Below are positions 2,582 through 60,208 of a DNA stretch of 62,479 nt, one piece after another; positions within the stretch are counted from its first letter, which is position 1, and every line of letters starts with the position of its first letter. The stretch comes from a virus. Taxonomy: Duplodnaviria; Caudoviricetes. Under the pieces are notes generated by a model. It was not told where the DNA came from. It saw only the letters and a list, made by a program, of their open reading frames with translations, and did no database searches. The position numbers and the translations under genes are program-made. The stretch covers positions 1 through 62,479 of the IMG/VR virus record IMGVR_UViG_3300045257_000499; one strand, given 5' to 3'.

Positions 2582-2658
2582 GGGTGCCTCAGCTGAATGT
2601 CGGGGGTAGGGATGTAGAGGGCCGGTCGCGTTCGGCCCTCTACGGGGCTGAGCGGGGC

Positions 2659-2844
2659 TCACTCGATCTCGTTGCGGCAGCGGAAGAACTCGACGCCGGT
2701 CTCGCGGTCGCGAATCACGCACAATGAACCGGTGCGCTCGATAATGTCGCACTCGCGCTCCTCCGGGACCGGGATGTCATCGGTCCAGAACGTGTGAGCG
2801 ACGTTGCGTTGGACTTTGGGGTGGGGCGCGGAGATGGTGCGCAT
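2659..2844 (-). CDS. Hypothetical phage protein
   Basis: GGAG RBS, CCCTACCA and promoter module upstream. Confidence 0.65.
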   Translation of the reverse strand: MRTISAPHPKVQRNVAHTFWTDDIPVPEERECDIIERTGSLCVIRDRETGVEFFRCRNEIE

Positions 2845-2904
2845 TGTTTGCTCCGTTGCATTCGTTGGTAGGGGACACGTCGGGTATTCCCGATCGATGT
2901 TTGC

Positions 2905-2936
2905 AGTCTGGCAGGCGAGCGGACTACGTCAAGTCC
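2905..2936 (-). promoter_or_regulatory. Repeated early promoter, copy 1 (TTGACG-N16-CAGACT)
   Basis: Same architecture as copies at 5013, 5744, 6895. Confidence 0.6.
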
Positions 2937-3196
2937 TAAGCGTCGAGCGGCTGAAGTTTTTCCTCAACCAGGATGCGGCTGACGCACGTGGCGACCAGGG
3001 ACGCAAAGGCAAGCTGCTCCCCGCCCGGGCTCGAGAGGAGGGCGCGCTCGTCGGCGTACTTGTCGCCGGCGATGAACTCTTTGAGCTCCTCGCGCATGAC
3101 GCGGCAAGCGATGTCGGCGTCGTCTGGTTTGATGACGCCGGTCGCGGCGACCGCGCGCATGAGTCGGTCGGCGACGGCGGCGATGGGATCGCTCAT
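2936..3196 (-). CDS. Hypothetical phage protein
   Basis: MSDPIAAV..., GAGGAGG RBS. Confidence 0.65.
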   Translation of the reverse strand: MSDPIAAVADRLMRAVAATGVIKPDDADIACRVMREELKEFIAGDKYADERALLSSPGGEQLAFASLVATCVSRILVEEKLQPLDA

Positions 3197-3207
3197 GGGT
3201 GTCCTCC

Positions 3208-3612
3208 TCAGAACGAGAAATCGTGATAGTGAGCCCGTTCGCCGATGCGCAGGCCCTCGCCATGGGTCTTCCGCCACCGTTGAGTGCGGGAGTTGAATCG
3301 GACCTGGTGCCAGCTCCCATCGTCGGCGCGGCGGTAGGTCGATATGGCGCCTTGTGGGTTCGGTGAGAACTCGTACTCCTGCGACTCGCTCATGCCGTTC
3401 TTGTCGACGCGCCTGACGTGGTCCTCCTGGACGTTGATGTAGGTCTGCTTCCTGTTCGCCCAGACCTGGATGATGGTCGCCGCGTGGCGCTCGGTCCAAC
3501 ACAGGATGGTTGCGCCCATGCCGACCTGGGGCTCCGGCTGTCCAATGACGGAGCGGCTGAGAATATGGTTGGTCAGACTGCCGGTTTCCTTTCCAAGTTT
3601 CATTATTGCCAT
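3208..3612 (-). CDS. Hypothetical phage protein
   Basis: GAGG RBS; ends HYHDFSF. Confidence 0.7.
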   Translation of the reverse strand: MAIMKLGKETGSLTNHILSRSVIGQPEPQVGMGATILCWTERHAATIIQVWANRKQTYINVQEDHVRRVDKNGMSESQEYEFSPNPQGAISTYRRADDGSWHQVRFNSRTQRWRKTHGEGLRIGERAHYHDFSF

Positions 3613-3848
3613 GTCCTCATTTGTTGTAGGAAGCTCGGAATAATAATCACGCGAAGGCATCCACCGGGGAGCGGCAAGCTGTGGCCGCAGTCTTCAAAGA
3701 ATGCCTGCACGCGCCATTCTCCGTTGCCGGGCGGCTCCAGGATGCGGCCGGCGACGAAGTCGACTTGGGTCTTGAGAAAGCCGAGGATTTCGGCGGCCTC
3801 GACATCGCTCTTTGCGGTGTCGATGAATTGGACCATGTAGTCGGCCAC
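3603..3848 (-). CDS. Hypothetical phage protein
   Basis: GGAGGT RBS, GTG start. Confidence 0.6.
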   Translation of the reverse strand: MADYMVQFIDTAKSDVEAAEILGFLKTQVDFVAGRILEPPGNGEWRVQAFFEDCGHSLPLPGGCLRVIIIPSFLQQMRTWQ

Positions 3849-3851
3849 GGC

Positions 3852-4112
3852 TCACCTCCCGCGCCGGCGGTGGTGATACCAGCGGTGATGATGCCAGTGG
3901 CGGTGTCCGCCAAACCGCACCACACGCACGCCGCGCGCCTGCGGGCAGCTGCAATGGCAGTCCACGCGGACCACGATTGGCGCCGGGGTTGGGACGGTCA
4001 CGGCGCGCTCGTGCGCGGGCGCCGGCGGCTTCGAGTCGCTGTAGGCCGAGTTGATGGCGCCAACGGCGAAAATGACAGTGCCGACCACGATTGCCAGACG
4101 GTCGAGGGTCAT
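3852..4112 (-). CDS. Small exported protein with His/Arg-rich tail
   Basis: N-terminal hydrophobic segment, CHCSC, HRHWHHHRWYHHRRR. Confidence 0.6.
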   Translation of the reverse strand: MTLDRLAIVVGTVIFAVGAINSAYSDSKPPAPAHERAVTVPTPAPIVVRVDCHCSCPQARGVRVVRFGGHRHWHHHRWYHHRRRGR

Positions 4113-4181
4113 GGATGGCTCCGTTGTTTGGTAGGGGTAAGGGCCGCGCGATTTGCTCGCGTCGGCCCGGCTTAGCGCGGC

Positions 4182-4964
4182 TTACCGATTGACCCAGCCG
4201 CCGAACCGGAAGCCGCTCTCCATCGCCGCGCGCGCCGCGTGCTTGGCGGTCTCGTCGCGGACGGTTCCCTCGCGGTCGGCGGCGGCGTCCATCTCCATCA
4301 TGCGGAGCTCGCCAGGGTCGATGCAGGCGAACATCTCGTCCGTGCGCTCGCAGCGCGCCGCGGCCTTGGCGCCCCAGGGCAGGCCGTAGTTCTTCGCGCA
4401 AGTTCGGCCGTAGCCGACTGCGGTCGAACGCTCGTCGGTGAGCGGGATATTGCAGAAGCAGCACTTGCCGGTCAGTCGGCCGTGCTCGGCCGCCACCTCG
4501 GAGGGTCGCTCCGCGAAGTTGCGCAGGGCAGGGAGGAGCGTGGCGGGAACATCGCACCGGTTCGACTCGTCGAACGAGCCGTCGCGTAGGATGCGGCCAA
4601 ACCAACGACCGACACCGTAGGGCGCGTTGTCGGCGACGTTGAGCGATCCCGGAACCCGGGCGCGCTCGCCGGCGACGCTCACGCGCACCTCGCCGACCTC
4701 GGCAATGTGCAGGACGATGGCGGGGGACTTGAGGTGCTGCTTGGCTCGCTCGAACAGCGCGAGGACGCCAGACAGGTCGCCAACCGACTCGCGCTGCTTT
4801 GGAGGCTGGCCGGCTTCGCGGGTCAACCGCTCGACCCAGTAGAGTTGCTTGCCGGATAGGCCGTGGCGCCGGCCCTTGCGGATCAGGTCGCGGGCAAAGT
4901 TCTGCTGGCTCGGGTTGAGCTGCTCGATGACCGCTTCGAGAGCGTTGATGGCTGCGTAGGACAT
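4182..4964 (-). CDS. DUF6011-like Zn-finger phage protein
   Basis: GKCCFCNIPLTDERSTAVGYGRTCA motif; AGGAG RBS. Confidence 0.75.
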   Translation of the reverse strand: MSYAAINALEAVIEQLNPSQQNFARDLIRKGRRHGLSGKQLYWVERLTREAGQPPKQRESVGDLSGVLALFERAKQHLKSPAIVLHIAEVGEVRVSVAGERARVPGSLNVADNAPYGVGRWFGRILRDGSFDESNRCDVPATLLPALRNFAERPSEVAAEHGRLTGKCCFCNIPLTDERSTAVGYGRTCAKNYGLPWGAKAAARCERTDEMFACIDPGELRMMEMDAAADREGTVRDETAKHAARAAMESGFRFGGWVNR

Positions 4965-5012
4965 TGCGTTGCTCCTGGTAGGGGTGCCCGTGGTTTTCCA
5001 CGTGACAAAGGA

Positions 5013-5070
5013 AGGATGGCAGGTACTACTCTGTTTGCAAGTCCTTTCCGGCCGAGCTCCAAAAAATGTT
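5013..5070 (-). promoter_or_regulatory. Repeated early promoter, copy 2 (TTGCAA-N16-CATCCT)
   Basis: T-tract, GCTCGGCCG, GGACTTG, CCTGC shared with other copies. Confidence 0.6.
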
Positions 5071-5084
5071 CGAGCCCATTTGGC

Positions 5085-5438
5085 TCACTCGTAAACCGGC
5101 CGCGTCGCGGGGAAAGGCGCGGGCCACCCCGGGCAGACGACGGCCCTGTACTCGCCTTCGGACAGCACAGAGGAGATCGCGCGCCGTCCCTTGTTGATGT
5201 GGGCGTCGAGCGAGGCTTGCAGCGTTTCCCGGTAAGAGGTGGCCTCGTCCTCGTCGGTGAATACCGTCATCAGGTCGTGCGGGTTGATCCCGTCCGGAAT
5301 GTGCTCGATTGGGCGGCCGTGGTCGTACCACCAGCCTCCCTCCTCCGGGCCCCCGTAGGCGCGGTCGACCATAAAGATTGCGACCGTCCAGAACGCGGGC
5401 TTGGTTTCCTGGGTGTCGAGCTCGTTGTCGCGGGGCAT
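5085..5438 (-). CDS. Hypothetical phage protein (DRAYGGPEEGGWWY motif)
   Basis: Start MPRDNE with GGAG RBS and CCCTACCA. Confidence 0.75.
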   Translation of the reverse strand: MPRDNELDTQETKPAFWTVAIFMVDRAYGGPEEGGWWYDHGRPIEHIPDGINPHDLMTVFTDEDEATSYRETLQASLDAHINKGRRAISSVLSEGEYRAVVCPGWPAPFPATRPVYE

Positions 5439-5496
5439 TGGTTGCTCCATTGGTAGGGAAGGATGGCCCCGGTTGACCGGGGCAGATTTTTGGGCG

Positions 5497-5697
5497 TCAG
5501 CGATAGCGGCGGGTGTGCGGGAGGGGAGTTTGCAGCGAGTGGCGGTTGTGCCACGCGATTTGAATGGTGTGGAGGGCGATGGGGTCGCGCTCGGTGCGCG
5601 CGCAAGAGATGACCATTGCAGCAACAGAGGCCGGATAGCCCATGTTGTGCAGGATGCGGTGAAGCCGGGGGACAGCGCGGATGGTTTGGTGGGCCAT
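5497..5697 (-). CDS. Hypothetical phage protein
   Basis: MAHQTIR..., AGGAG RBS. Confidence 0.55.
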   Translation of the reverse strand: MAHQTIRAVPRLHRILHNMGYPASVAAMVISCARTERDPIALHTIQIAWHNRHSLQTPLPHTRRYR

Positions 5698-5743
5698 TGT
5701 TTGCTCCTGGTAGGGGTGTCCGTGGTTTCCACGTGACAGGGGG

Positions 5744-5800
5744 AGCATGGCAGGGACTACGACTGATGCAAGCCCTATGCGGCCGAGCGAACAAAAAAGT
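5744..5800 (-). promoter_or_regulatory. Repeated early promoter, copy 3 (TTGCAT-N16-CATGCT)
   Basis: Shared module. Confidence 0.6.
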
Positions 5801-5831
5801 GCGGCTCCGTGTACCCGGGGCCGGGGAGGAG

Positions 5832-6092
5832 TCAGAGGGGATCGGCAAACTCAAGCAGAGCCCAGGCTGCCTCGCATGTTGCGTCACACGCCTTGCACCA
5901 TGCCGGGTTCGAGGTGCTTGGAGTCCCGGCGGCCAGCATGCGCGCGGCGGCGTCGCGGACTGCGGCGATCTGTTTTACGAGCGCGCGCTTCTTGGCGCCG
6001 GCGACGTGCGCCAGCTTCGTGTTGGCCATCTTGATGACGTTGGTTGGGCATACCCCGTACCAATCGAGCGAGGATCTCTGCGGCTGTTTCAT
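5832..6092 (-). CDS. Hypothetical phage protein
   Basis: 86 aa, CxxCxxxC near the C-terminus. Confidence 0.55.
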   Translation of the reverse strand: MKQPQRSSLDWYGVCPTNVIKMANTKLAHVAGAKKRALVKQIAAVRDAAARMLAAGTPSTSNPAWCKACDATCEAAWALLEFADPL

Positions 6093-6176
6093 CTCAGTAG
6101 CTCCCGAGCGCCGTGCCGACCAGCCCGGCCGTGAACCGGGGCGAGGAGGAGAATGGCGAACATCATGGCGCCTTCC

Positions 6177-6440
6177 TCAGATCGTCTGGGCCGCGACGGT
6201 GCGTAGCTTGTCGGCCATCTGGAGCAGCTGGTCGGCGACGATCTCGGCGAGGTTCTCGTCGTCGTCGACGTCGGCCTGCACGAACGGCCAAAGGGAGCCA
6301 TTCATCGGGGCGGCGCCAACATCGAAGCCCTCGCGGCGGGTAATGTAGTGGCCGCTCAAAGCGACTCTCAGCGTTGAGACGAGCCGGTCGGCGCGCTCAC
6401 GGTTGAGGGCGGAACCGAATTGGACAGAGCGGATAGGCAT
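6177..6440 (-). CDS. Hypothetical phage protein
   Basis: MPIRSVQ..., AAGGAG RBS. Confidence 0.65.
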   Translation of the reverse strand: MPIRSVQFGSALNRERADRLVSTLRVALSGHYITRREGFDVGAAPMNGSLWPFVQADVDDDENLAEIVADQLLQMADKLRTVAAQTI

Positions 6441-6459
6441 GTTGTCTCCTTGGTAGGGC

Positions 6460-6843
6460 TCAGTGAACCGGCAGGCGATAGGCTCGCGCGTCCTCGTGGC
6501 AGACAGCGAGATAGGGACGCTTGCTCGAGCCGGCGATGGTGCAGATGTAGGTGTACGGTTTGCCACGCCACGAGCGGACCTTTGTGGCATCGAGCGGGAC
6601 CGCGTAGCGCTTGCAGATGCCGGCAACGGTGCGCGCGACTCGGTCGGCGGTGCAGACCGTTGCGTCGGTCGCCTGCGCGGTGGCGCGCAGGGCGTCTTCC
6701 GACCGGTACGACTCAGCAAACTTGCGGGAGAGGAGGACGGGGTTGAGGCCGTATTCGGCCGCGATCTCGGCGACCACGTCGGCGGCGGCGGCGCCATTCA
6801 CCACTTCGGCCCGGAGATCTGAAAGAGCGGAGGCCAGTGACAT
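6460..6843 (-). CDS. Hypothetical phage protein
   Basis: MSLASAL..., AGGAG RBS. Confidence 0.7.
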   Translation of the reverse strand: MSLASALSDLRAEVVNGAAAADVVAEIAAEYGLNPVLLSRKFAESYRSEDALRATAQATDATVCTADRVARTVAGICKRYAVPLDATKVRSWRGKPYTYICTIAGSSKRPYLAVCHEDARAYRLPVH

Positions 6844-6894
6844 TGTTTTCTCCTGGTAGGGTGGTCGCCCGGTTTCCAGGTCAACCATTCGAGG

Positions 6895-6952
6895 AGTCTT
6901 GCAGGCTACTGAGTTACGTCAAGTCCTATGCGGCCGAGCTCCAAAAAAAAGT
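6895..6952 (-). promoter_or_regulatory. Repeated early promoter, copy 4 (TTGACG-N16-AAGACT)
   Basis: Shared module. Confidence 0.6.
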
Positions 6953-6962
6953 CAAGAGAGGA

Positions 6963-7142
6963 TCAGCATGCGCTCCGCGCGGCGAGGCGGCGAAACATTG
7001 CCTTGCGCTCCTCGCGCAGCTCTGTGAGGTAGCGCCGCATGGAGGCCGCGCCGCGCGGCCGGTTCTCGCCCTCGGCGTTGGCCAGGACTTCCTTGGCGCG
7101 GTGAATCTCTCGATCAATCTCGGCGACTGTCTCGAAAGCCAT
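6963..7142 (-). CDS. Small coiled-coil protein (59 aa, absent from ORF track)
   Basis: MAFETVAEIDREIHRAKEVL..., GAGGAGGG RBS. Confidence 0.6.
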   Translation of the reverse strand: MAFETVAEIDREIHRAKEVLANAEGENRPRGAASMRRYLTELREERKAMFRRLAARSAC

Positions 7143-7152
7143 GGTCCCCTCC

Positions 7153-7359
7153 TCACTTCGTGTCGACCAGATGCGGGCGCAGTTCGAACAGATCGCCCGC
7201 TGAAACTGCGTTCATGCCGAAGTAGGCTTGCAGAGCTTCGTGCTCGGCGTTGGGAAGGGTTGTCAGCTGGTCGGTGGCGACGACCTGACGGCCGTCAAGA
7301 AACAGATTGCCGCGGATGTAGTCGTGGCCGAGGCGCTCGGTGATGGGGAAGGTGGTCAT
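7153..7359 (-). CDS. Hypothetical phage protein
   Basis: MTTFPIT..., GAGGAGG RBS. Confidence 0.6.
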   Translation of the reverse strand: MTTFPITERLGHDYIRGNLFLDGRQVVATDQLTTLPNAEHEALQAYFGMNAVSAGDLFELRPHLVDTK

Positions 7360-7370
7360 TGCCCACCTCC

Positions 7371-7670
7371 TCACCACTTCGCGACGCCGGCCGCGGCCAG
7401 AGCTAGAGCGGAGGCATGGTTGACAGCCAGATCGAGGCGGCCGCCCTGGCGGATATTGTTGACCTGGTTGACGGTCCAGCTCAGCACCTCGACCGGAGTG
7501 GTGTCGCGTTCGCCGGCGGTTTGTTTGGCGCAGGCTTCGACGAACCGAGCGCGGTAGCCTTCGAGATCGCGGGCAGCGCGCTTGTGGTGCTCGATCAGCT
7601 CGTCGATCCACGCCGTGGCGCCGTCGTGGGCCATCTTGAGCATCATGCTCTGCCGGTCTTGCTTGGTCAT
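7371..7670 (-). CDS. Hypothetical phage protein
   Basis: 99 aa, GGAG RBS. Confidence 0.65.
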   Translation of the reverse strand: MTKQDRQSMMLKMAHDGATAWIDELIEHHKRAARDLEGYRARFVEACAKQTAGERDTTPVEVLSWTVNQVNNIRQGGRLDLAVNHASALALAAAGVAKW

Positions 7671-7797
7671 CGTAAGTCTCCGTTGCTCAGGTAGGGAAGT
7701 TCTCGTTTTCGTTAAGTGTAGTCTGAACCTGTACTATCGAAATTCAATGACTAACCTTGAAATAATACTTCTTTGTTCTTGCGTTCGTAGAATAGCG

Positions 7798-7824
7798 TGA
7801 CGCCCGGGTCGAGCCCGGGCGTCA
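7798..7824. repeat. Perfect 11-bp inverted repeat in an AT-rich intergenic region
   Basis: TGACGCCCGGG-N5-CCCGGGCGTCA. Confidence 0.8.
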
Positions 7825-7872
7825 GCGGCGGATGCGTGTATATAGTGTGGAACGGAGAGGGAACGAAAGTAA

Positions 7873-8382
7873 TCAGCCTCCGTGCAGGTCGAGGCGCATC
7901 TGCTTCCCCGTGGGCTTCGCTGGCGGCTCGACCGGAGAGTAGGAAGGGGCCGCGACCCCGTTCAGCCTGAGCAGGGCGAAGCGGTCCAGACCGGGGAAGT
8001 CCACCTCGGGGACCTTGATGCCGAGGGAGTCCTCGAGCCACTGCGCCACGATGTGTCGGTGGCACCACTTCACCCCGCATTGGACATCGCTCGCGCCCTC
8101 GAAGCAGAGGAGAGTGGGCGTGCGGCCGTCGCTGGCGAGTCGCTGCAAATCCGCGACGACCTTGTGGGGATCGAGGGAAGCGAGAATTTCCTTGTTGAAA
8201 CGCCGCAGGTATTCGGCGGGCGTGCACGACTTGAACCACGAGCCGGGACACAACGCACGATACTGCTTGAAGCCGGCAGCCTGGCCGCGCGGGGTTCCGC
8301 GAGAGATGCCCACCCGCAGGTGAGTCGCGGGGAGCTTCGCGAACCACGAGGCGGTCGCGATGATGGGCTGCGAGTCAGTCAT
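7873..8382 (-). CDS. DUF488-like protein
   Basis: GISRGTP, LCPG.WF, TLLCFE...CHRH motifs. Confidence 0.7.
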   Translation of the reverse strand: MTDSQPIIATASWFAKLPATHLRVGISRGTPRGQAAGFKQYRALCPGSWFKSCTPAEYLRRFNKEILASLDPHKVVADLQRLASDGRTPTLLCFEGASDVQCGVKWCHRHIVAQWLEDSLGIKVPEVDFPGLDRFALLRLNGVAAPSYSPVEPPAKPTGKQMRLDLHGG

Positions 8383-8583
8383 GTGCGTGTTGTCTCCATG
8401 GTAGGGTCGGTTTTTAGTTGATCCCATCATTATGGGTAGTTGCCAACAGGTTTTCAAGAAGAAAATTTGTTAGCTCGCTCAAGCGCCTGCGCAAAATCGT
8501 CGCCGTCTGCTGCTGCGCACCTCTTGCGCGCGCGCACGCGCGCGACACACAAGCCCGGCCACAACGAAGAAAGAAAAACAACG

Positions 8584-9573
8584 ATGGTCTCGATCGCTCC
8601 CGCTTGCGTGATGGTGAGGGTTACCAGCCAGGGGCAAGGCCCGCTGGTGCTGGGTGATCCGATTCCCGGCAGCGGCTACCGCTCGTTTCAGGACGCGCAG
8701 ATTCAGAACGGAGCGTACATCGCCTACGAACTGTTCGAGGTCATCGGCAATGGCGTCCTCCAGCGCGAGCAGTCGAATGGCGTCTACGACGCTACGGTGG
8801 GCACGGTGACGCGAGAGGTCGACGCCTCGACCAACGGCGGGCAGCCGATCGCGCTCCAGGGCAACGGCGTGCTGCGCATGCAGTTCGGCCCGAGGGATTT
8901 GAAAGCCATCGACGGCGGGATCTTGGACGCGGTCGACAACGCCGACACGCCAGCGATCCTTGCGACGATTCAGCTGTTACGCTCCTCGACGCCGGGTCAC
9001 GCGCCGACCACGCTCGTGCCCGGGCAGATCGCCATCAACTCCGCCGACAGCATTCTCTATTGGCCGGACAAGGACGGCCATGTGCAGAACGCGCACCTGC
9101 TCGACGTGGCGGACATTCCGAACCTCGTTGAGCGAGTGGCCGCTCTCGAAGGCGAGGTGTCAACCCTCAACACCGAGATGGAGCAGGCGCAGGCCGACAT
9201 CTTGAGCCTCGATAATCGCGTGGCAGCTCTCGAGGCGCTGGGTTCGGTGGTGAAGGTCACGCCGGTCGCCTCGACGGAGACTCTCACGCTCGACGCGCGC
9301 ACCAAGCGCGTCATCGGTTTTGCCTGGGGCGGCAGCGCCGGCACCGATAGCGACAGCCCCGGCGGCGCGGGCGGCAACACCATGGTTGGCTCCTTTGTGA
9401 CCGCCCTCGGCGGCACGTCAAACGGCGCGCGCGGCGCGTTTGCGGTCGGTTCGGGCAGCGTCACCGGTGGTTCCGGCCTCACGGTTACGATTGGCGCCGG
9501 GGGCACGGCTGGTGGCGGCGCTGGCAGTCCAGGCGTCGCGGGCGGCGCGCTCGTCGTCGAGCTGAGTGCGTAG
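8584..9573 (+). CDS. Tail-fibre-like virion protein outside the tail module
   Basis: Segment similar to the N-terminus of fibre 46547, coiled coil, Gly-rich C-terminus. Confidence 0.65.
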   Translation: MVSIAPACVMVRVTSQGQGPLVLGDPIPGSGYRSFQDAQIQNGAYIAYELFEVIGNGVLQREQSNGVYDATVGTVTREVDASTNGGQPIALQGNGVLRMQFGPRDLKAIDGGILDAVDNADTPAILATIQLLRSSTPGHAPTTLVPGQIAINSADSILYWPDKDGHVQNAHLLDVADIPNLVERVAALEGEVSTLNTEMEQAQADILSLDNRVAALEALGSVVKVTPVASTETLTLDARTKRVIGFAWGGSAGTDSDSPGGAGGNTMVGSFVTALGGTSNGARGAFAVGSGSVTGGSGLTVTIGAGGTAGGGAGSPGVAGGALVVELSA

Positions 9574-9674
9574 AGTTACCAACAGGTTCGTCGCGTACCC
9601 CCTTGCACATGCTGGGGGAGTCATCGCAAAAGCAGCACAACGAACAAACAAACAATCGTGAAGTAAGCGACTAC

Positions 9675-9748
9675 CCGCCCGTCGTCTAGTGCCAGGACAC
9701 CGATTCCCTCGGATCGGGACGCAGGTGCAAACCCTGCCGGGCGGCCCA
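9675..9748 (+). tRNA. Atypical tRNA-Glu-like cloverleaf (8-nt anticodon loop, TGCAAAC T-loop)
   Basis: CCGCCCG/CGGGCGG acceptor plus C-CCA; GTCTAGTGCCAGGAC D arm; CCGAT/ATCGG; GCAGG/CCTGC. Confidence 0.65.
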
Positions 9749-9770
9749 TCCCCTACCAAGGAAGACGGCC

Positions 9771-9929
9771 GTGGGATTTGCGGCGAAGCAGGTGTACGGC
9801 CCTGATTCCCCGGGCCACAAGCGCCGACAGCAAGGCACGACGCTGACCAAGGTCAAGGCGATGATTCGCGAGCGCACGTCGTCGCGTCGCGAGATGGTCA
9901 ACCTCGGCCTCCTCGGGAACAAGCGGTGA
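9771..9929 (+). CDS. Small basic protein (52 aa, absent from ORF track)
   Basis: GTG start with AAGGAAG RBS and CCCTACCA upstream. Confidence 0.5.
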   Translation: MGFAAKQVYGPDSPGHKRRQQGTTLTKVKAMIRERTSSRREMVNLGLLGNKR

Positions 9930-9999
9930 TCCGGAGACTCATGGCCTTGCCGGCGCTCTATCGCTGGCTGCGCGACTTCGTCGAGGACGGAGCGCGCTG

Positions 10000-10563
10000 A
10001 TGGCTATCGGCGGTCACCACTCGCCAACCTCCAAGTCCGTCGACTGGCTCACGCCGCCGCGAATCATCGGGGCGCTCGGCAAGTTCGACCTCGACCCCGC
10101 GTGCCCGCCCAATATGCCGTGGCGCACGGCGACCGTGATGCTCACGCCGGAAGATGACGGCTTGGCGCACGATTGGTCGGTGTTTCCGCGCGTGTGGCTG
10201 AATCCGCCGTATGGGCAGGCAGAGGTACAGGGCCCGTGGCTGCGCAAGCTCGTGGAGCACGGCCGCGGCACCGCCCTGATTTTTGCGCGCACCGAGACCG
10301 AGCTGTTCTTCGAGTGCGTGTGGTCGAAGGCAACCGCGATCCTGTTTCTGGAGGGCCGGCTGTTCTTCCACTACGGCTGGCCGCATCACGACACCAAAAG
10401 CGGCCGCACCTACGCGGTAGGAGATCGGGCGGCGCACAACAGCGGCGCCCCCTCGGTGCTCGTGGCGTATGGCGGCGCGGACGCGGCCGCGCTCCACAGG
10501 AGCGGACTGCCCGGCCGCTACGTCCCGCTTTTCGTGACCACGCAGGTGAAGGCGGCGGCATGA
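10000..10563 (+). CDS. Phage DNA N6-adenine methyltransferase (Dam family)
   Basis: DWLTP, FDLDPA, DDGL, WLNPPYG, ARTET, GRL motifs. Confidence 0.88.
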   Translation: MAIGGHHSPTSKSVDWLTPPRIIGALGKFDLDPACPPNMPWRTATVMLTPEDDGLAHDWSVFPRVWLNPPYGQAEVQGPWLRKLVEHGRGTALIFARTETELFFECVWSKATAILFLEGRLFFHYGWPHHDTKSGRTYAVGDRAAHNSGAPSVLVAYGGADAAALHRSGLPGRYVPLFVTTQVKAAA

Positions 10564-13996: not shown

Positions 13997-14162
13997 TGGC
14001 GAAGCCGTGGGGCGCCTCGGAGATGCTTCGCCGCGCGGCTGAGTGCGCGGGGAGCGCGCGCGTCACCCCCTAAACCTGTTGGCAACTTCTCGACGCGCAT
14101 GACGCGCGTCCGCGGCGCAACCTACAAGCCCGCTCGTCGTCATCGTCGTGCTGCCGCACGGC

Positions 14163-14322: not shown

Positions 14323-14351
14323 CCCCTACCAACGAAGCAACGGAGACGGAG

Positions 14352-14819
14352 ATGAGGTTTTGGATTCGGCTCGTGGTCGACATCCTCATCGGCCTCGCGA
14401 TCCTTCTGGTGATCGGCTTGGTCTTCGGCGTGTGGTTCGGCATCCGCACTGCCCACGGCCGCGACCTCGGCCAGTGGGGTAACGCCGACCCGGCGATCTC
14501 GCGGTGGTTCAAGTCGCTCCAGCAGCCGGACGTCGAAGCGTCGTGCTGCGGCGAGGCCGACGCCTACTGGGCAGACGGATTCGATTCCAACAAAGACGGG
14601 AACTATATCGCGATCATCACGGATGAGCGCGACGACACCGCACTCGTGCGGCGCCACATCCCGGTCGGCACGCGCATCACGATCCCGAAAGAAAAGGTCA
14701 AGTGGGACCAAGGCAACCCGACCGGCCACGGCGTCGTGTTCGTCGCGTCGACTGACTACGACGCGAACACCCCGCAGGGGTTCTGGGTCTACTGCTACGT
14801 GCCGCCGGGAGGGGCGTGA
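14352..14819 (+). CDS. Exported Cys-containing protein
   Basis: N-terminal TM segment; SCCGEADAYWAD; YCYVPP. Confidence 0.75.
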   Translation: MRFWIRLVVDILIGLAILLVIGLVFGVWFGIRTAHGRDLGQWGNADPAISRWFKSLQQPDVEASCCGEADAYWADGFDSNKDGNYIAIITDERDDTALVRRHIPVGTRITIPKEKVKWDQGNPTGHGVVFVASTDYDANTPQGFWVYCYVPPGGA

Positions 14820-14982: not shown

Positions 14983-15168
14983 GTGATGGCGACGGCGCAG
15001 CAAATCGAGAGGGCAGCGCAAGCCATATGGATCGCGCGGCGCGCCAAGCTCGCGCTGCAAGGCGTCACCAGGGCGTGCCTGCCGTGGTCGCAGGAAGACG
15101 AGAGGGTGAAGGAGGCGGTGCGGCTCGAGGCGGCCGCGGCTCTCAATAGCTACGAGGAGGCGGAATGA
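14983..15168 (+). CDS. Hypothetical protein
   Basis: GGAGG RBS, coupled. Confidence 0.55.
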   Translation: MMATAQQIERAAQAIWIARRAKLALQGVTRACLPWSQEDERVKEAVRLEAAAALNSYEEAE

Positions 15169-15386
15169 GCAAGCGAACCAAACAAGTTACGTGGCGTGAC
15201 GCCGAGCTCGGCGTGCTGCGTACGTGCTGGGGACGCATCTCGTTGCTGTCGATCGCGGAGCGGCTTGGCTGGCGCCGCTCTGTCAATGCGCTGCTCGGCA
15301 AGGCTCTGCGGATCGGGCTCTCGGTGAAGCCATACCGCGAAGCCTACGCGCAGAGCCCGTACCGAAACGCGGTGCTCGTGTCGTGA
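15165..15386 (+). CDS. GcrA N-terminal-like HTH protein
   Basis: W...EL..LR..W....S...IAERLG..RSVNALLGKA.RIGL pattern. Confidence 0.65.
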   Translation: MSKRTKQVTWRDAELGVLRTCWGRISLLSIAERLGWRRSVNALLGKALRIGLSVKPYREAYAQSPYRNAVLVS

Positions 15387-15916: not shown

Positions 15917-16228
15917 GTGAGCAAACCCTCCGGCCTGCGCCACCGCGACGACAATCTCTGGAGCCGCAGTCACGCCTACCGCAAAGGCTACCACGCTGGC
16001 CGCATGGACGAGCGCGAAGACAAGATGGCGCGCCCGGTGCTGATTCAGTTTCGTTTTGAGGACGGCCGCGTGGTCAATCTCAACGAAGCTGTTGGCAACT
16101 TGGCGAAAGTTGGACTCAAGATCGTTCCGGTCGATCAGCCTGACATGCAACCCCGACTCAGAGCGGGGGAAGTCCCTACCGAGGAGACAGCATGTCGGAC
16201 ACCAAATACTACGTCGTCGGCTTCTTGA
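15917..16228 (+). CDS. Hypothetical protein
   Basis: GGAG RBS, GTG start. Confidence 0.5.
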   Translation: MSKPSGLRHRDDNLWSRSHAYRKGYHAGRMDEREDKMARPVLIQFRFEDGRVVNLNEAVGNLAKVGLKIVPVDQPDMQPRLRAGEVPTEETACRTPNTTSSAS

Positions 16229-16653: not shown

Positions 16654-16660
16654 GTTCGCT

Positions 16661-29412: not shown

Positions 29413-29534
29413 CCGAATAGCGCGGTACTTCGCCTTTCGTCACCTGAAGACATAGGGTCGGCGAAGCTAAGCGGCGAGCAAATGCGCACGGCCGCGCGGC
29501 CATTCTTTTCCCTACCAGAAAACAAAAAGGATCG

Positions 29535-35799: not shown

Positions 35800-35828
35800 T
35801 CTGATTCCTACCAGAGAGAACAAGAACA

Positions 35829-51050: not shown

Positions 51051-53414
51051 ATGTCCAACCTGGACGTCTCTGTCATCCTCCGACTGGTTGACCAGCTTTC
51101 GGGTCCTGCGAAGAAGGCCGCCGATAACATCAAGGGGATGGTCAAACAGTTCGAGGCGCTCAAGAAGGTCGGCGGCTTCGACTCTGCGCGGCGGCAGGCC
51201 GACAGCTTCCACAAGTCCATCAAGCCGCTTGTCAAAGACCTCTCGGCGATTGCGACCGAGTTGCGCAGGATCACCGGGCTCTCGCGCACGGCGCTCGGCG
51301 GGATGAATGTTGCGGCCGGCAATGCCGGCTTGGCGGCGCAAGCTTCGCATCTGCGGCAGATCGCGAATCTCCAGCAGCAGATGATCCGCAACCAGGCGCG
51401 CCTTGGGCATGGTGGCGGCGGCCGCGGGTATCACGGCATTCCGCTCGGGCTCGGGTATGCGCTGACCGCCCATCGGATCGGTCACGGTGTCGCTGCCGGC
51501 TTCGGCAAGGCCGGGACGCTCGATTCCGAGATGGCGATGCTTGAAGTCGCCGGTTACAACGCTGGCGAGCGCCGGCGCATGCTCGAGCAGGCGCGTGCGA
51601 CCTCGAACATTGTTCCGCAGACCACCACCGCGCAGAATCTCCACCGTCTGCGCGAGTTGACGTACGCCTTCGGCGACGTCGGGCATGCGCTCGAGTCGCT
51701 GACCGACGTCGCGAAAGTGATGCAGGTCGTAAAGTCTGCCCTCGGCGAGCAAAAGGGCGGCTCCTTCCACGATCAGGCGATGGAGATCGTGAAGGGCGGC
51801 GAGCTCAAGAACTACATTTCGAGTCCGGAGGAGTTCAAGAAGTGGCTGGATATGTCGGCGCGGTCTTCGATCGCGACCGGCGGTCTCGTCACCCCGGCGG
51901 CGACGTTTCAGGCGCTCAAATATGCGCGCTCGGCGATCCACGGGTACAACGACGAGTTCATGTCGAGGTACCTGCCCGAGATCATTCAGGAAATGGCGAC
52001 GGGCAGGGGTGGTGGCGCGCGCGGCGGCGCGGGTCCGAGCCTTGCCTCGTTCAAGCGCATGTTCGTCGACTCCACGGTGGCGGCGAAATACATCCCGGCT
52101 CTGCTCAAGTCCGGACTGATCGACAAGGATCACATCGACTACGACAGCAAGGGCAAACCCAAGGCTTTGCTCCCAGGCGCGTTTTTCGGCAATGACATCG
52201 CCTCCAAGAACCCGTTCCAGTACATGGAGCAATACCTCAAGCCCGCTCTGGAGCTAGCCGGGGTCGATTTGAAAGACCACTCCGCGGTCGTCAGAAAGAT
52301 CTCCGAGTGGGGCGGTACTGACATCGCCAAACAGCTCAACCAGTTGATGGTGATTCAGCGCGATCAGATGAAGAAGCGCGCGGAGCTCAATCAGCGCTCG
52401 ATGGGCTTTGAGGAAGCGTACGAGCGAGTCCAGGGCACCTACAATCAGACGCTCGAGTCTTTGAAAAAGACCACTGACGACCTGATCGCGAATGCGCTCG
52501 TGCACTTCGAGCCGATGCTCGTGCCGGCGATGAAGGGCCTTCAGAACTTCCTTGGCGGTCTGCGCAATGTCTTTTCAGGACCGGGCGGAGGCTTGTTGGC
52601 TGCGGGCGGCGCGCTCGCAGGCGCCGGTCTGCTCGCGGGACTGCTACCGCGCCTGCTCGGTGGCGGGCTGCTCGGGCGGCTTATCGTCGGCGGCGCGGGC
52701 ATGGCCTTACTTGGCCCCGGCGGCGCCTTACTCGGCGCATTCACCGGGCTCGGCACGGCGGTGACCACAGCCGCGGCTGGGTTGACGGCCTTGTCGGGCG
52801 TCCTCATTGCCACTGGCGTCGCGCTCACTGCCGCGTACGGCGTGAGCAAGGCGTGGGAGATGGCGAAGAAAGCGCCGGATCGGCTGGCTGAGGAGTACCG
52901 CAAACCGGGCACGTTCTTCGTCGATCCGATGAGCGGGATTCCGCTTGCCAACCCGACGCGCGGCCATATCGAGTCGACCTTCGGCCCAGAGATGGGCAAG
53001 AAGGCCGAGTCGAGCGGCGCGAGCGCGGGCTCTGGTTGGTTCACCTCGTTCTGGGACACCGTCAAGAGCGGGATGGCCAGCGTCGGCAACGTGGTCCCGG
53101 CCGGCAATATGTCCGGAGAGGGATCGAAGTCCGGCTCGGCGTGGGCGAACGCCTTCCTTGCCGCCGCGCGAGCGATCTCCAGCGCCACGATCCCGGGGCC
53201 GAGCGTTACTCCATCGGGAGGCGGCGGCGCCAGCGGCGCAGTTCCCGCCACGGGGGCGAAGCCCGGCAAGAGTTCGGCGCTGCATCGCAACGTCAACGTG
53301 GCCGCGATGCACATTCACGTCCACGGCGCGCACGAGCCGGCCAAGGTCGCCGATGCCGTGCACCGCAAGTTCGCGCGCGCGGTCGAGAAGCAGCTCTCGG
53401 ACATTTACGCATAA
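51051..53414 (+). CDS. Tape measure protein
   Basis: LRLVD.LS.P N-terminus, helical, Gly/Ala hydrophobic region; position. Confidence 0.85.
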   Translation: MSNLDVSVILRLVDQLSGPAKKAADNIKGMVKQFEALKKVGGFDSARRQADSFHKSIKPLVKDLSAIATELRRITGLSRTALGGMNVAAGNAGLAAQASHLRQIANLQQQMIRNQARLGHGGGGRGYHGIPLGLGYALTAHRIGHGVAAGFGKAGTLDSEMAMLEVAGYNAGERRRMLEQARATSNIVPQTTTAQNLHRLRELTYAFGDVGHALESLTDVAKVMQVVKSALGEQKGGSFHDQAMEIVKGGELKNYISSPEEFKKWLDMSARSSIATGGLVTPAATFQALKYARSAIHGYNDEFMSRYLPEIIQEMATGRGGGARGGAGPSLASFKRMFVDSTVAAKYIPALLKSGLIDKDHIDYDSKGKPKALLPGAFFGNDIASKNPFQYMEQYLKPALELAGVDLKDHSAVVRKISEWGGTDIAKQLNQLMVIQRDQMKKRAELNQRSMGFEEAYERVQGTYNQTLESLKKTTDDLIANALVHFEPMLVPAMKGLQNFLGGLRNVFSGPGGGLLAAGGALAGAGLLAGLLPRLLGGGLLGRLIVGGAGMALLGPGGALLGAFTGLGTAVTTAAAGLTALSGVLIATGVALTAAYGVSKAWEMAKKAPDRLAEEYRKPGTFFVDPMSGIPLANPTRGHIESTFGPEMGKKAESSGASAGSGWFTSFWDTVKSGMASVGNVVPAGNMSGEGSKSGSAWANAFLAAARAISSATIPGPSVTPSGGGGASGAVPATGAKPGKSSALHRNVNVAAMHIHVHGAHEPAKVADAVHRKFARAVEKQLSDIYA

Positions 53415-57066: not shown

Positions 57067-57070
57067 ACCG

Positions 57071-57343: not shown

Positions 57344-57463
57344 GAGTTCTGTCCCCACGTTATTTGTTGTGGATGCAGGGCGCGCGCGTGAGCTGCGCGC
57401 TGATAATGGCGGCAATCGCTGAGTCGCGCCAAGCGGCCAGCTCCCTACCAGTGAGGTCAACGG

Positions 57464-59362
57464 ATGCCCACGCCGCCCGTCTCTCGCCAGCAGGCGAGAG
57501 AAGCCGTCTCGTTCGTCAACAAGGCCCTTAAGCAGGGCTTCAAGCTGAAGGGCGCGCCGAGCGCGATCGAGGAGGCGGCGCGGACGTTCCGCGCCGAGAC
57601 CGGGGTCCCGCTCAACCGGCAAGCCTTTCGCCAGCGCGTTCAGGCGGCAGAGTTCCGCTACGGCATCCTCCCCAGGGCCACAAAAAAACAGACCGCGGAA
57701 CCAGCCGCGGCGACTCCATCGGCAGAGGACCACGCGCACGCGCGCGCGCGGTCCCTGTCCGAGGAGATCACGCGTCTGGTCACGCGCTCGCGTTACCCGC
57801 TTGTGAACCCCGACGCCATCCTCGTCGAGTCGTATCTGTCGCGGCGCTATGACCGCAATATCGGCAAGCACGTGGTGGTCGAGGGCACCCCTCGCACCTG
57901 GCTATCCGGCACGCTCCAGGTTGCGCCCGTCGCCAAGCCGAAGGGCCGCAAGTTCCTGTTCACTGGAGCGCAGAATGACGCGCCGATCCACGAAGCGTTC
58001 TGGGCAAACCTCCAAGCCTATGCCGCGCACATTGGCGCGGAGATCGTCGTCGGTCCCTGGACCTACGAGACGCAATGGTGGTCGGAGAACAACCCGACCT
58101 CGCGCGCTTACGACACCGCGTTGTCCGATCATCTGTGCTTTGGTCAGATGCCGGTCAGCGATCACTTCGTGTTCTGCGGGGAGATGAATACGCTGCCAAC
58201 GGCAGCGCGCCCCATCTCCGACCTCGTGACGTACTCGCGCGGCCGCTGGGCCGTGTTCCCTCACGCCAAGCTACAGCTCAAGAGCGTGCCGTCGACCGAT
58301 CCGCGGATTCAAGCGCATCAAGTCATGACGTCGGGCGCCGTCACGCGCCCCAAGGTGATCCCGCGCAAGGCGGGTGTGAAGTCGATCTTCCACCACATCA
58401 TCGGTGCCACCATCGTCGAGTTCGACCGTGACGGCGACATCTTTTGCCGGCAGATCAACGCTAACGACGCGGATGGCAGCTTCTACGACCTCGACGTCTT
58501 CGCGTCGAAGGGAAATGTGACCGCCGGTCACCGTGTGCGCTCCATCGTCACCGGCGACATCCACTGTGCCAAGCTGCGGCCGCGGAACACGATCGCGACG
58601 TTCGGCTACGATCCGCACACCGGCAAGATCGTTCGCGACGTGAGCCTTCTCGATACGCTACGGCCCGAGTTGGTGTTCCTGCACGACATCTTCGATATGC
58701 AGGCGCGCAACCACCATCACGTCGGCGACAACGCCTACTCGTACGAGCAGGCCGTGCGCAAAAAGGAGTCTGTGCTCGGCGAGATCGCCGGGGTGGCTGA
58801 TTTTCTGAAAGCCATCTCGCGGCCGTGGCTGCGCCCCATCGTGGTTGAGTCCAATCACGACCTGGCGCTGGAGCGCTACGTTCGTGAGGGTCGCTACCGC
58901 AACGACGGCGAGAACATCCGCATCGGGATTCAGCTGGAGGACGCCTACCTCGCCTACCGCGAACAGGTCGCGCACGCGCTCGACCGCTACGAGTCTCCGC
59001 CGACCTTCAGCGTACTCGAGCACGCCATCCGGAAGTTCTGGGGCGACGACATTGGCAATGTCGAGTGGGTGCACGACGGCCAGTCGTTCATCGTGGACGG
59101 CGTCGAGTGCGGTCATCACGGTTTCCGCGGCACCAACGGCGCGAAGGCAACCATCAACACGTTCGCTCGCATCGGCCGGAAGATCACGTTCGCCGACAAG
59201 CACACAGCCGAGATCATGGACGCCGCCTACTGTGTCGGCGCGATGGAACTCCAGCACGGTTACAACAAGGGGCCGTCGAGCTGGACGGTATCTGATTGCG
59301 TCCAATACCCCAACGGGAAGCGGACGCTCCTCACGATGCAGAACGGTAAGTGGCGGGGGTGA
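57464..59362 (+). CDS. Calcineurin-like metallophosphoesterase/nuclease, possibly T5 A1-like
   Basis: GDIH, HDIFD, SNHD, HHG, HT motifs. Confidence 0.7.
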   Translation: MPTPPVSRQQAREAVSFVNKALKQGFKLKGAPSAIEEAARTFRAETGVPLNRQAFRQRVQAAEFRYGILPRATKKQTAEPAAATPSAEDHAHARARSLSEEITRLVTRSRYPLVNPDAILVESYLSRRYDRNIGKHVVVEGTPRTWLSGTLQVAPVAKPKGRKFLFTGAQNDAPIHEAFWANLQAYAAHIGAEIVVGPWTYETQWWSENNPTSRAYDTALSDHLCFGQMPVSDHFVFCGEMNTLPTAARPISDLVTYSRGRWAVFPHAKLQLKSVPSTDPRIQAHQVMTSGAVTRPKVIPRKAGVKSIFHHIIGATIVEFDRDGDIFCRQINANDADGSFYDLDVFASKGNVTAGHRVRSIVTGDIHCAKLRPRNTIATFGYDPHTGKIVRDVSLLDTLRPELVFLHDIFDMQARNHHHVGDNAYSYEQAVRKKESVLGEIAGVADFLKAISRPWLRPIVVESNHDLALERYVREGRYRNDGENIRIGIQLEDAYLAYREQVAHALDRYESPPTFSVLEHAIRKFWGDDIGNVEWVHDGQSFIVDGVECGHHGFRGTNGAKATINTFARIGRKITFADKHTAEIMDAAYCVGAMELQHGYNKGPSSWTVSDCVQYPNGKRTLLTMQNGKWRG

Positions 59363-59464
59363 TTCCCTGTTGGCAACTCGGCCCGCAAGGGTTGAGTTGC
59401 CCCGGGTCTCTCCGCCATAGTCCGGACCAACAAAGAACGATCCCTACCAGCGAGACGACGGAGC

Positions 59465-59875
59465 GTGCCTGTGAGGTTTTCGGTCGAGCTGTCCCAGCTC
59501 ACGGCTGGTGACGGGTTTTGGTACGTCGGCACTCCCTACACAAAATTCGAGGAAGGAATCGACGCGGCGGCCGAGGCTGCGTGTCGAGTCACCGGCGCTC
59601 TCATGAAAGAGGGCGTGGCGGTCTTTTCGCCTATCGCGCATTGTCATTGGATCGCGAAGTTTTCAGGCATCGATCCTCTCGACGTTGATCTCTGGCTCGA
59701 GCAGCAAAGCCCATTCATTGCGACCGCGCGCGGCTTGATTGTCGCGATGTTGCCGGGCTGGGACGGAAGTGACGGCGTGCGGCATGAGATCCGAAAGTTC
59801 GCTCAAGCCAGCAAGCCCATCGTCCACTTCGATCCCTTCTACGGTCAGCGAGTTCGTGGCCGCGTGGCTGGCTGA
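59465..59875 (+). CDS. DUF1937 / nucleoside 2-deoxyribosyltransferase-like protein
   Basis: Y.GTPYT, VFSPIAH.H, GW..S.GV..E, KPI. Confidence 0.75.
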   Translation: MPVRFSVELSQLTAGDGFWYVGTPYTKFEEGIDAAAEAACRVTGALMKEGVAVFSPIAHCHWIAKFSGIDPLDVDLWLEQQSPFIATARGLIVAMLPGWDGSDGVRHEIRKFAQASKPIVHFDPFYGQRVRGRVAG

Positions 59876-60013
59876 GCACGATCACGATCCCATGAAGGCC
59901 CTTCACACGCTCGCCGCGGCGTACATCAGCGCCGAACAAGAAGCAGAGCGACTTAGCCGGCTGCTGACTGGCGGGTTCGCCCGCAAAGGTCCCTTGCCGG
60001 CCAACTGACAGCG

Positions 60014-60062
60014 CGCCCCATCGCTTCGCGACTCGTACGCGGAGCGGTGGGGCGTTTTTTTG
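60014..60062 (+). terminator. Intrinsic terminator
   Basis: 17-bp stem (with G-U pairs) plus T7. Confidence 0.85.
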
Positions 60063-60089
60063 TTTCGTCGGCCGTGTGACGCGGCCAAA

Positions 60090-60179
60090 GGCTCTGGAGA
60101 GGTCTCACGACCTCGAAGGGGTGATGAGAAGGAGAACGGGCGTATCGTCACTGTACGGGCAAACGCGCGGCACAGCGCC
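60090..60179 (+). promoter_or_regulatory. Glycine-riboswitch-like variant leader
   Basis: CTCTGGAGAG-hairpin-CGAAGG-stem-GGCAAA-ACAG layout. Confidence 0.35.
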
Positions 60180-60208
60180 CCCGATCCCTACCAAGAAGGA
60201 ACCAACGG

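Follow-up and report, generated by a model that had tools for sequence, protein, structure and literature searches.

The virus record IMGVR_UViG_3300045257_000499 (Duplodnaviria; Caudoviricetes) is a sequence of 62,479 bp with a G+C content of 64%, which was analysed whole and is called the window below. It carries an eight-nucleotide (nt) word, CCCTACCA, in front of about 18 of its genes. The signal is real and highly non-random, and it stands at a restricted distance from start codons, 5' of the Shine-Dalgarno (SD) sequence. We tentatively favour, with confidence somewhat short of even, the reading that the word, as CCCUACCA in the mRNA, is a leader element that is read sequence-specifically by a trans-acting factor, most likely encoded by the phage, and that the translation of these ~18 genes would be co-controlled in this way.

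Genes were placed with our own codon-usage caller, which gave 96 genes covering 88% of the sequence and left 12% non-coding. All 14 exact copies of CCCTACCA listed in the original prediction were recovered at the same positions and on the same strands, as were the four one-mismatch copies at 2604 (-), 7689 (-), 16174 (+) and 35806 (+), the last of which precedes the capsid gene (Table 1). Dinucleotide-preserving shuffling of the window gave an expectation of 0.38 exact copies, well below the 2-3 copies that had been estimated by hand, and none of 100 shuffles reached 14. None of the 14 exact copies fell in coding sequence, although coding sequence makes up most of the genome. The combined pattern of motif, SD and ATG was matched eight times, compared to an expectation of 0.00. 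One-mismatch copies were not clearly enriched as a class (27 against ~20 expected); the four named above share the start-associated placement of the exact copies. The conserved block is exactly 8 nt long and conservation falls off at either edge, with a pyrimidine directly in front at 15 of 18 sites and a purine directly behind at 16 of 18. At least ten of the exact copies have unrelated flanks and yet are identical at all eight positions. The sharp edges of the block, together with unrelated flanks outside the repeated cassettes described below, suggest selection on the 8-mer itself rather than shared descent.

All 18 copies read in the sense direction of the gene that follows. The distance from the 3' end of the motif to the start codon (ATG at 16 sites, GTG at two) is 10-23 nt, a slightly wider range than the 10-21 nt reported before; at site 29510, an alternative ATG at 29535 would give 17 nt instead of 23 nt. 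The motif was correctly described as phage-wide, 5' of the SD and distinct from it. An SD-like word (GGAG at 11 sites, AGGA or GAGG at six and GAG at one) lies between motif and start, beginning 0-13 nt 3' of the motif and ending 5-11 nt 5' of the start, and the sequence from motif to start codon is T-poor and purine-rich. The motif never overlaps an SD, a start or a stop, and none of the 18 copies lies at a gene end that is not followed by a start. The distance from the upstream stop is variable (1-327 nt); at site 6451, for example, the motif begins 1 nt past the upstream stop, within a gap of 19 nt. Since this distance varies while that to the start stays within 10-23 nt, it is the start codon, not the upstream stop, to which the motif is anchored. 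The view that it marks genes with their own leader, and not coupled genes, held at 17 of the 18 sites (gaps of 19-355 nt), the remaining copy, at 16174, overlapping an upstream open reading frame (ORF) whose call is doubtful. Equal use in early and late modules was borne out only in part: 16 of the 18 sites precede non-structural genes or genes of unknown function, and two precede structural genes, namely 29541-29948 and, through a variant copy, the capsid gene.

To describe the RNA context of the motif, leader regions were folded in silico. The predicted unpaired probability of the 8-mer was 0.76 over the 18 sites, compared to 0.45 in the equivalent window of 78 other genes (p=7e-7) and 0.43 in 28 other leader-bearing genes (p=9e-6). 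When the eight letters were permuted in place, the value was still 0.75. Composition and context thus account for the predicted accessibility, which leaves the invariant letter order unexplained. Permuted letters would be equally accessible, and 14 perfect copies are kept, most of them in unrelated flanks, which argues for a reader that is sequence-specific. The motif had also been said to follow structured RNA. Hairpins are indeed predicted, ending 0-11 nt upstream of it, but they are not specific to it: the 45 nt upstream of the motif fold with a mean of -14.6 kcal/mol (n=18), compared to -13.8 kcal/mol at the 78 other genes (p=0.48) and -15.7 kcal/mol at 28 other genes with gaps of at least 50 nt (p=0.84). 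An upstream hairpin as a specific partner of the motif was rejected on these grounds. No Rfam family overlapped the motif sites in a scan of the window.

Several sites lie downstream of promoter-like sequences. A sigma-70-like promoter (TTGAAA-17-CATAAT) precedes site 8399, which would place this copy within the 5' untranslated region (UTR), at about +16 of the predicted transcript. Repeated cassettes of ~100 nt surround sites 4976, 5708 and 6854 and, in a looser form, site 2866. In them, a T-rich terminator tail, a -35-like hexamer (CTTGAC or CTTGCA), a weak -10, a hairpin whose loop is of the GAAA type (GAAA or GAAAA), the motif and GGAG follow one another in this order; the downstream genes are small ORFs of unknown function. 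At these four sites the motif comes 28-33 nt after the putative -10. A second repeat, TGTTGGCAACT, also written (C)CTGTTGGCAACT, is present in four exact copies and one variant (0.41 expected) and lies 39-247 nt upstream of sites 8399, 14324, 16174 and 59442, its copy at 8438 occupying the spacer of the sigma-70-like promoter. Judged from its sequence and placement, it may be an operator or mark a second promoter class. Since the motif follows at least two kinds of upstream element, it appears to be independent of promoter type and to act after transcription start. At seven of the 18 sites, no more than 2 nt separate the motif from GGAG, whose own distance to the start codon is 5-11 nt (5-7 nt at six of them). 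The RNA must accordingly include the motif, which argues against a -10 or start-site element. Collectively, these features place the motif within predicted 5' UTRs, downstream of host-type promoter-like sites.

Table 1. Positions of the motif copies, associated repeats and main identified genes in the window (aa, amino acids).
Feature	Position	Strand	Remarks
CCCTACCA, exact	2866..2873	-	21 nt to ATG of 2659-2844 (61 aa)
CCCTACCA, exact	4129..4136	-	16 nt to ATG of 3852-4112 (86 aa)
CCCTACCA, exact, adjoins GGAG	4976..4983	-	11 nt to ATG of 4182-4964 (260 aa, DUF6011 protein)
CCCTACCA, exact	5451..5458	-	12 nt to ATG of 5085-5438 (117 aa)
CCCTACCA, exact, adjoins GGAG	5708..5715	-	10 nt to ATG of 5497-5697 (66 aa)
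CCCTACCA, exact	6451..6458	-	10 nt to ATG of 6177-6440 (87 aa)
CCCTACCA, exact, adjoins GGAG	6854..6861	-	10 nt to ATG of 6460-6843 (127 aa)
CCCTACCA, exact	8399..8406	-	16 nt to ATG of 7873-8382 (169 aa, DUF488-like)
CCCTACCA, exact	9751..9758	+	12 nt to GTG of 9771-9929 (52 aa)
CCCTACCA, exact	14324..14331	+	20 nt to ATG of 14352-14819 (155 aa); upstream stop 327 nt away
CCCTACCA, exact	29510..29517	+	23 nt to start of 29541-29948, virion structural protein (PHROG 3758)
CCCTACCA, exact	57443..57450	+	13 nt to ATG of 57464-59362 (T5 A1-like)
CCCTACCA, exact	59442..59449	+	21 nt to GTG of 59471-59875 (134 aa)
CCCTACCA, exact	60186..60193	+	15 nt to ATG of 60209-60799 (196 aa, weak CHAP/lysozyme-like)
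Variant CCCTACCC	2604..2611	-	22 nt to ATG of 2384-2581 (65 aa)
Variant CCCTACCT	7689..7696	-	18 nt to ATG of 7371-7670 (99 aa)
Variant CCCTACCG	16174..16181	+	10 nt to ATG of 16192-16653 (NUDIX hydrolase-like)
Variant TCCTACCA	35806..35813	+	15 nt to ATG of major capsid gene 35829-36797
Sigma-70-like promoter, predicted	8429..8457	-	TTGAAA-17-CATAAT; 10/12 matches; -10 end 22 nt upstream of site 8399
Cassette copy 1	4969..5072	-	around site 4976
Cassette copy 2	5701..5803	-	around site 5708; 74-80% identical to copy 1
Cassette copy 3	6847..6948	-	around site 6854
Looser fourth cassette copy	2874..2945	-	promoter-like part and hairpin, around site 2866; read by eye
Second repeat (C)CTGTTGGCAACT, exact	8438-8448	-	
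Second repeat (C)CTGTTGGCAACT, exact	14077-14087	+	
Second repeat (C)CTGTTGGCAACT, exact	16090-16100	+	
Second repeat (C)CTGTTGGCAACT, exact	59368-59378	+	
Second repeat (C)CTGTTGGCAACT, 1 mismatch	9574-9584	-	
Large terminase	20399-21952	+	PHROG/Pfam scan
Portal	21963-23612	+	PHROG/Pfam scan
Major head protein	35829-36797	+	PHROG 247, E=1e-96
Tail sheath	48126-49958	+	PHROG/Pfam scan
Tape-measure-like protein	51051-53414	+	PHROG/Pfam scan
T5 A1-like DNA transfer protein	57464-59362	+	PHROG 1745

In the mechanism we favour, CCCUACCA would be an exposed, single-stranded 8-mer that acts in cis, 0-13 nt 5' of the SD in ~18 independently translated genes, and a single trans-acting factor would read it by sequence. 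This reader would most likely be an RNA-binding protein encoded by the phage, which is our best guess, a host factor being less likely. Translation initiation of the motif genes would be placed under common control, by joint activation or joint shut-off, with translation rather than mRNA stability as the probable output. Such control would resemble the RegA regulon of phage T4, or what has been proposed for the start-associated sequences (SAS) of cluster K mycobacteriophages.

The original prediction had offered pairing with helix 11 of 16S rRNA as one way of reading the motif. A perfect complement does exist in some Alphaproteobacteria: TAGTTGGT[A/G]GGGTAA, which holds the complement TGGT[A/G]GGG with flanks, was found in 98 of 401 sampled alphaproteobacterial genomes (a tally that takes in the unpublished genome G042) at copy numbers like those of rRNA. 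The perfect complement is TGGTAGGG, or TGGTGGGG with one G-U pair, and lies at nt 231-241 of Rfam-confirmed 16S rRNA in the two genomes examined. However, in both 16S genes it is already paired with CCTACCA (nt 245-254) in the same hairpin, which we take to be helix 11. Moreover, 22-29 of 168 letter permutations of the motif (13-17%) have a complement in those 16S genes that is just as perfect, so that the match carries no statistical weight. The pattern of motif, SD and ATG occurred at 41 places in 301 alphaproteobacterial genomes, with at most four per genome, compared to ~43 for a backward control. This pattern is thus not enriched, and the motif is not a general host signal, in the 301 genomes searched. 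In three alphaproteobacterial genomes, near-identical leaders ...CACCCCTACCA(A)GCGGAGATGCAAAATG precede a conserved 63-aa ORF in four copies (L082 and L083, both in G157; L086 in G193; L087 in G008); this may be a mobile or repeated element that has the same word beside its SD.

Candidate readers within the phage were also considered. A small RNA complementary to the motif was rejected, since perfect Watson-Crick or G-U complements in the window are confined to the antisense of the sites and three places inside coding sequence. In the three tRNAs and one skipping-rope RNA that make up the non-coding RNA genes of the phage, the best complement is a run of 6 bp in the D-loop of tRNA-Met, about what chance would give by a rough estimate. 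Gene identities were assigned by PHROG and Pfam profile scans, with 80 ORFs covered by one or both and ~16 ORFs, mostly structural, left out. No sigma-factor, RNA-polymerase, repressor, integrase, helix-turn-helix (HTH) or relevant nuclease family scored above threshold in the 80 ORFs scanned. ORF 1221-1472 gave a sub-threshold S15-like match (E=0.026) and no usable match in the protein atlas. The product of this ORF is Arg-rich (83 aa, pI 11.1) and, with the GNRA-like loops of the cassettes, raises the idea of an N/nut-like system. Lambda-type nut sites (boxA/boxB), of which a genome has one or two close behind its early promoters, with boxA 5' of the boxB hairpin and an arginine-rich N protein as reader, were rejected: there are 18 sites here, the order is hairpin then motif, loops of the GAAA type occur at four sites only, and the Arg-rich ORF has no family match. 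Together, these results leave action on the mRNA as the most likely part of the earlier proposal of a translational-control or RNA-processing signal, given the 5' UTR location, the start anchoring and the predicted single-strandedness. Its hairpin and 16S parts were unsupported or weak, and no observation favoured its suggestion of a tRNA-3'-end (ACCA) mimic.

The word might instead act in DNA, as an asymmetric 8-bp binding site of a phage DNA-binding regulator (a roadblock or repressor, or an activator), its closeness to starts being secondary. The copies are strictly intergenic and in one orientation relative to transcription, as such a site could be, and weak ParA-like (26355-27077, E=8e-4, below cutoff) and ParB-like (18664-19419) matches leave a plasmid-like lysogeny open. 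We nevertheless consider a DNA site unlikely. All 18 copies keep their 10-23 nt distance 5' of a start and avoid SD, start and stop, the T-poor, purine-rich and predicted unpaired leader is relevant to RNA and not to duplex DNA, 8 bp is short for a monomeric DNA site, and the scanned ORFs yielded neither a repressor nor an integrase or HTH protein. With so strict a position 5' of the SD and so RNA-like a leader, a DNA-level role is the less likely one. Somewhat more doubtful is cleavage at or beside the motif by an endoribonuclease of the RegB-like, MazF-like or RNase E type, which would free each cistron, its 5' end being defined and close to its SD, and leave the upstream RNA capped by a 3' hairpin. 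T4 RegB cuts in the GGAG of early leaders and T7 has RNase III sites between its genes; the motif, too, has an intercistronic position in RNAs that are probably polycistronic, is predicted to be single-stranded and often stands 0-11 nt downstream of a stable hairpin. These hairpins are, however, no more stable than those at other genes, and at 5-6 sites the predicted primary 5' end is only ~15-30 nt away, where processing would add little. RNase E sites are AU-rich, which the motif is not, and no nuclease of the RegB, MazF or RNase E families was detected in the ORFs scanned.

There is a slim chance that the word has no specific reader at all and is kept either through duplicated leader cassettes serving as recombination linkers or as an unstructured standby site for the ribosome. 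The predicted accessibility of the motif region agrees with this, as do the 3-4 sites within a repeated ~100-nt cassette that resembles the promoter-early stem-loop (PeSL) elements described in PMC2839356. Duplication would not explain identity at eight of eight positions with sharp edges in at least ten exact copies with unrelated flanks, and a standby role would not fix the letter order, because permuted letters are equally accessible. A slightly slimmer chance is given to an enhancer intrinsic to the ribosome, in which pairing with host 16S rRNA or binding of a 30S protein would make a second mRNA-ribosome contact besides the SD. The complement described above, at 16S-type copy numbers in the 98 genomes and in Rfam-confirmed 16S rRNA of two, would permit such pairing; its enclosure in a hairpin, the equal pairing of 22-29 of 168 permutations and the lack of enrichment in the 301 genomes speak against it. 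The spacing to the SD (0-13 nt) is moreover odd for two fixed rRNA contacts, and the nearest Bradyrhizobium phage, BDU-MI-1 (KY940711.1; L079/L019), is not enriched in the motif, with one copy of CCCTACCA in 121 kb. Very improbable is the idea that the motif is the core of a phage-specific promoter or a transcription start element. Several phages use short conserved promoter words, and a purine directly follows the motif at 16 of 18 sites. A bacterial-type -10 in this position would put the transcription start 5-9 nt downstream and lose the SD at seven of the 18 sites. No positions upstream of -2 are conserved, host-type promoter-like sites already lie upstream, and the large ORFs gave no match to a phage RNA polymerase or sigma factor.

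Several points weigh against an mRNA leader element read by a phage factor. RNA-binding, RegA-like, Com-like or other translational-regulator domains were detected in none of the 80 ORFs; as the majority of early ORFs match no family, little weight can be put on this negative result. The 5' ends and leaders are those of promoters predicted from sequence, gene starts come from a simple in-house caller and not from a curated annotation, and the folding predictions were made on isolated pieces of 113 nt. Strand-specific intergenic placement is also a property of the stoperators of cluster A mycobacteriophages, which act at the DNA level as 13-bp sites of the immunity repressor, in many asymmetric intergenic copies oriented with transcription. 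Unlike the motif here, stoperators keep no fixed position 5' of the SD, and neither a repressor nor an HTH protein was found in the ORFs scanned. Finally, searches of IMG/VR, GTDB genomes and JGI metagenomes with the capsid, terminase and DUF6011 early proteins, and of INPHARED and other named phages with DNA and protein, yielded no close relative. The best matches were the capsid of BDU-MI-1, at 54% aa, and at most 43% elsewhere. A 15-mer of motif plus SD occurs in 41 IMG/VR stretches, and no locus examined has more than two copies of the 8-mer, so that these matches are at chance level. In the literature, the raw 8-mer retrieved only unrelated primer matches, and conserved words 5' of the SD in phages led to the PeSL and Mordin reports discussed below.

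Start-associated words of other kinds were found elsewhere. BDU-MI-1 has a repeat of its own, GCTTGAATGCAAA, ~40 nt upstream of several starts including that of the capsid gene, which looks more promoter-like. Four IMG/VR contigs (L026-L029) were rejected as wider relatives because the DUF6011 early protein is the sole protein that they share with the window. On three of them, for which gene calls are crude, words were seen before starts: four copies of GCAGACCGAA ending 13-17 nt before starts in L028 (about 3000-5290), eight copies of ATGAAAGG, seven of them before starts and often after CCCAACC, in L027 (about 400-9950), and one CCCTACCA and one CCCTTACCG, after hairpins and before starts, in L029 (1583-1995). 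This suggests that phage-specific leader words may be common in such early regions. The differing words of L028 and L027, which share the DUF6011 protein, would fit phage-specific readers.

Known systems offer partial parallels. RegA of T4 binds sites that overlap the start codon and are loosely conserved, and RegB cuts inside GGAG. The likeness lies in one phage factor acting on the ribosome-binding regions of many early mRNAs; the difference is that no homologue of either was detected here in the ORFs scanned. The earlier comparison with cluster K SAS is apt in the sense of an element that may work in the same way. As described in PMC3203893 (Pope et al. 2011), the SAS is a short asymmetric repeat with 11-19 copies per genome, nearly all of them in one orientation. 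It is kept across related phages before differing gene families and is absent from the host genome or very rare there. It is 13 bp long (GGGATAGGAGCCC), contains the SD core (AGGAG), ends 3-9 bp from the start and is distinguished there from 13-bp stoperators. About half of its copies are preceded by an extended element with a putative promoter, and action of a host or phage factor has been put forward. Its role is still unexplained (PMC11373665, 2024; PMC12699233, 2025). Compared to the SAS, the motif is similar in copy number (14 exact and four variant copies), in its single orientation (18 of 18), in lying upstream of the starts of mostly non-structural genes with their own intergenic space and, as far as the 301 alphaproteobacterial genomes show, in being rare outside the phage group. 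It differs in being 8 bp long and lying wholly 5' of a separate SD, with a spacer of 0-13 nt and at 10-23 nt from the start, and CCCTACCA does not resemble GGGATAGGAGCCC within two mismatches. The SAS is restricted to non-structural genes in that account, whereas two of the 18 genes here are structural, and the host phylum is Actinobacteria for the SAS and here probably belongs to the alphaproteobacteria. By analogy, the motif would thus work like the SAS without belonging to it by position, length or sequence.

Two further cases are closer in host or in architecture. In Citrobacter phage Mordin, eight genes are preceded by a 26-bp SAS-like repeat (PMC4611695). The phage infects a Gram-negative host, and in its repeat, as here, a GGAG-type SD comes after a C/A-rich 5' part; the repeat differs in that its 26-bp block includes the SD, is probably a duplicated leader and has fewer copies. 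The PeSLs of T4-type phages (Arbiol et al. 2010; PMC2839356) are repeated intergenic cassettes, ~100 bp long, in which a sigma-70-like promoter is combined with a stem-loop and an SD before small ORFans. The 3-4 cassettes here (2874-2945, 4969-5072, 5701-5803 and 6847-6948) are like them, but PeSLs are described without a separate invariant word by the SD, and most copies of CCCTACCA lie outside any cassette, 14 or more of the sites having unrelated flanks.

The gene content of the window is that of a tailed phage with a minus-strand block of small, mostly unknown, early-type ORFs (710-8382), followed from 8584 on by genes on the plus strand. The final ORF (61808-62479) runs off the 3' end and resumes in frame in a 5'-open ORF (1-663, +), so that the record is cut within a gene, as expected if the genome is circular or circularly permuted. 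Nucleotide and DNA-modification genes are densely represented (10000-10563, 11406-12890, 16192-17605, 59471-59875, 7873-8382 and 61164-61811) and include those for a Dam-like methylase, a DAM-like-phage1 plus phage-GNAT protein, a NUDIX hydrolase, a dCMP deaminase, DUF488-like and DprA-like proteins and a weak nucleoside deoxyribosyltransferase-like match. Judging from these genes, the DNA of this phage may carry modifications. A DNA polymerase was not recognised in any ORF scanned. The nearest named phage is BDU-MI-1, with 59% aa identity in the A1-like protein in addition to the capsid match given above, followed by Rhizobium and Caulobacter phages. Since these phages infect Bradyrhizobium, Rhizobium and Caulobacter, the host is probably an alphaproteobacterium. 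A basic protein of 73 aa (15165-15386, +) gave a sub-threshold match to the GcrA N-terminus (E=0.007, 17.1 bits compared to a cutoff of 26.9), which would fit such a host.

Upstream of the capsid gene, the skipping-rope RNA (Rfam RF02924; 34651-34763, +; 46.7 bits compared to a gathering score of 36.7) sits in a 338-nt gap between ORFs 34271-34585 and 34924-35748. The latter ORF lies directly upstream of the capsid gene and would be a scaffold protein by its position only. The phage tRNA-Met (CAT; 27078-27154, +) ends in CCCTGCAACCA, and its first base is an A that stands unpaired opposite an A; a mispaired end of the acceptor stem is a trait of initiator tRNAs.

A more far-reaching form of sequence-specific reading is that CCCUACCA is the address label of a translation channel private to the phage, in which a factor would recognise the word beside the SD and give these mRNAs initiation that is privileged or gated in time during the reprogramming of host translation. 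We give this a small chance. The factor would be an unrecognised RNA-binding protein or, conceivably, the phage tRNA-Met with its A-A mismatch at the first base and its 6-bp D-loop complement. If true, this would amount to a second recognition code for loading bacterial ribosomes, distinct from SD pairing, and it would also account for the mycobacteriophage SAS.

Together, these results suggest an independent SAS-like case in an unrelated myovirus, probably of an alphaproteobacterial host. Because the conserved word here is physically apart from the SD, it can be mutated without touching SD pairing, and the question that it poses is therefore a cleaner one. Should the word do nothing measurable, it would be a caution against reading function into short phage repeats. 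If one factor reads the motif, it would govern roughly one in five phage genes as a master switch, and factor and motif together would make a compact, orthogonal expression control for high-GC bacteria.

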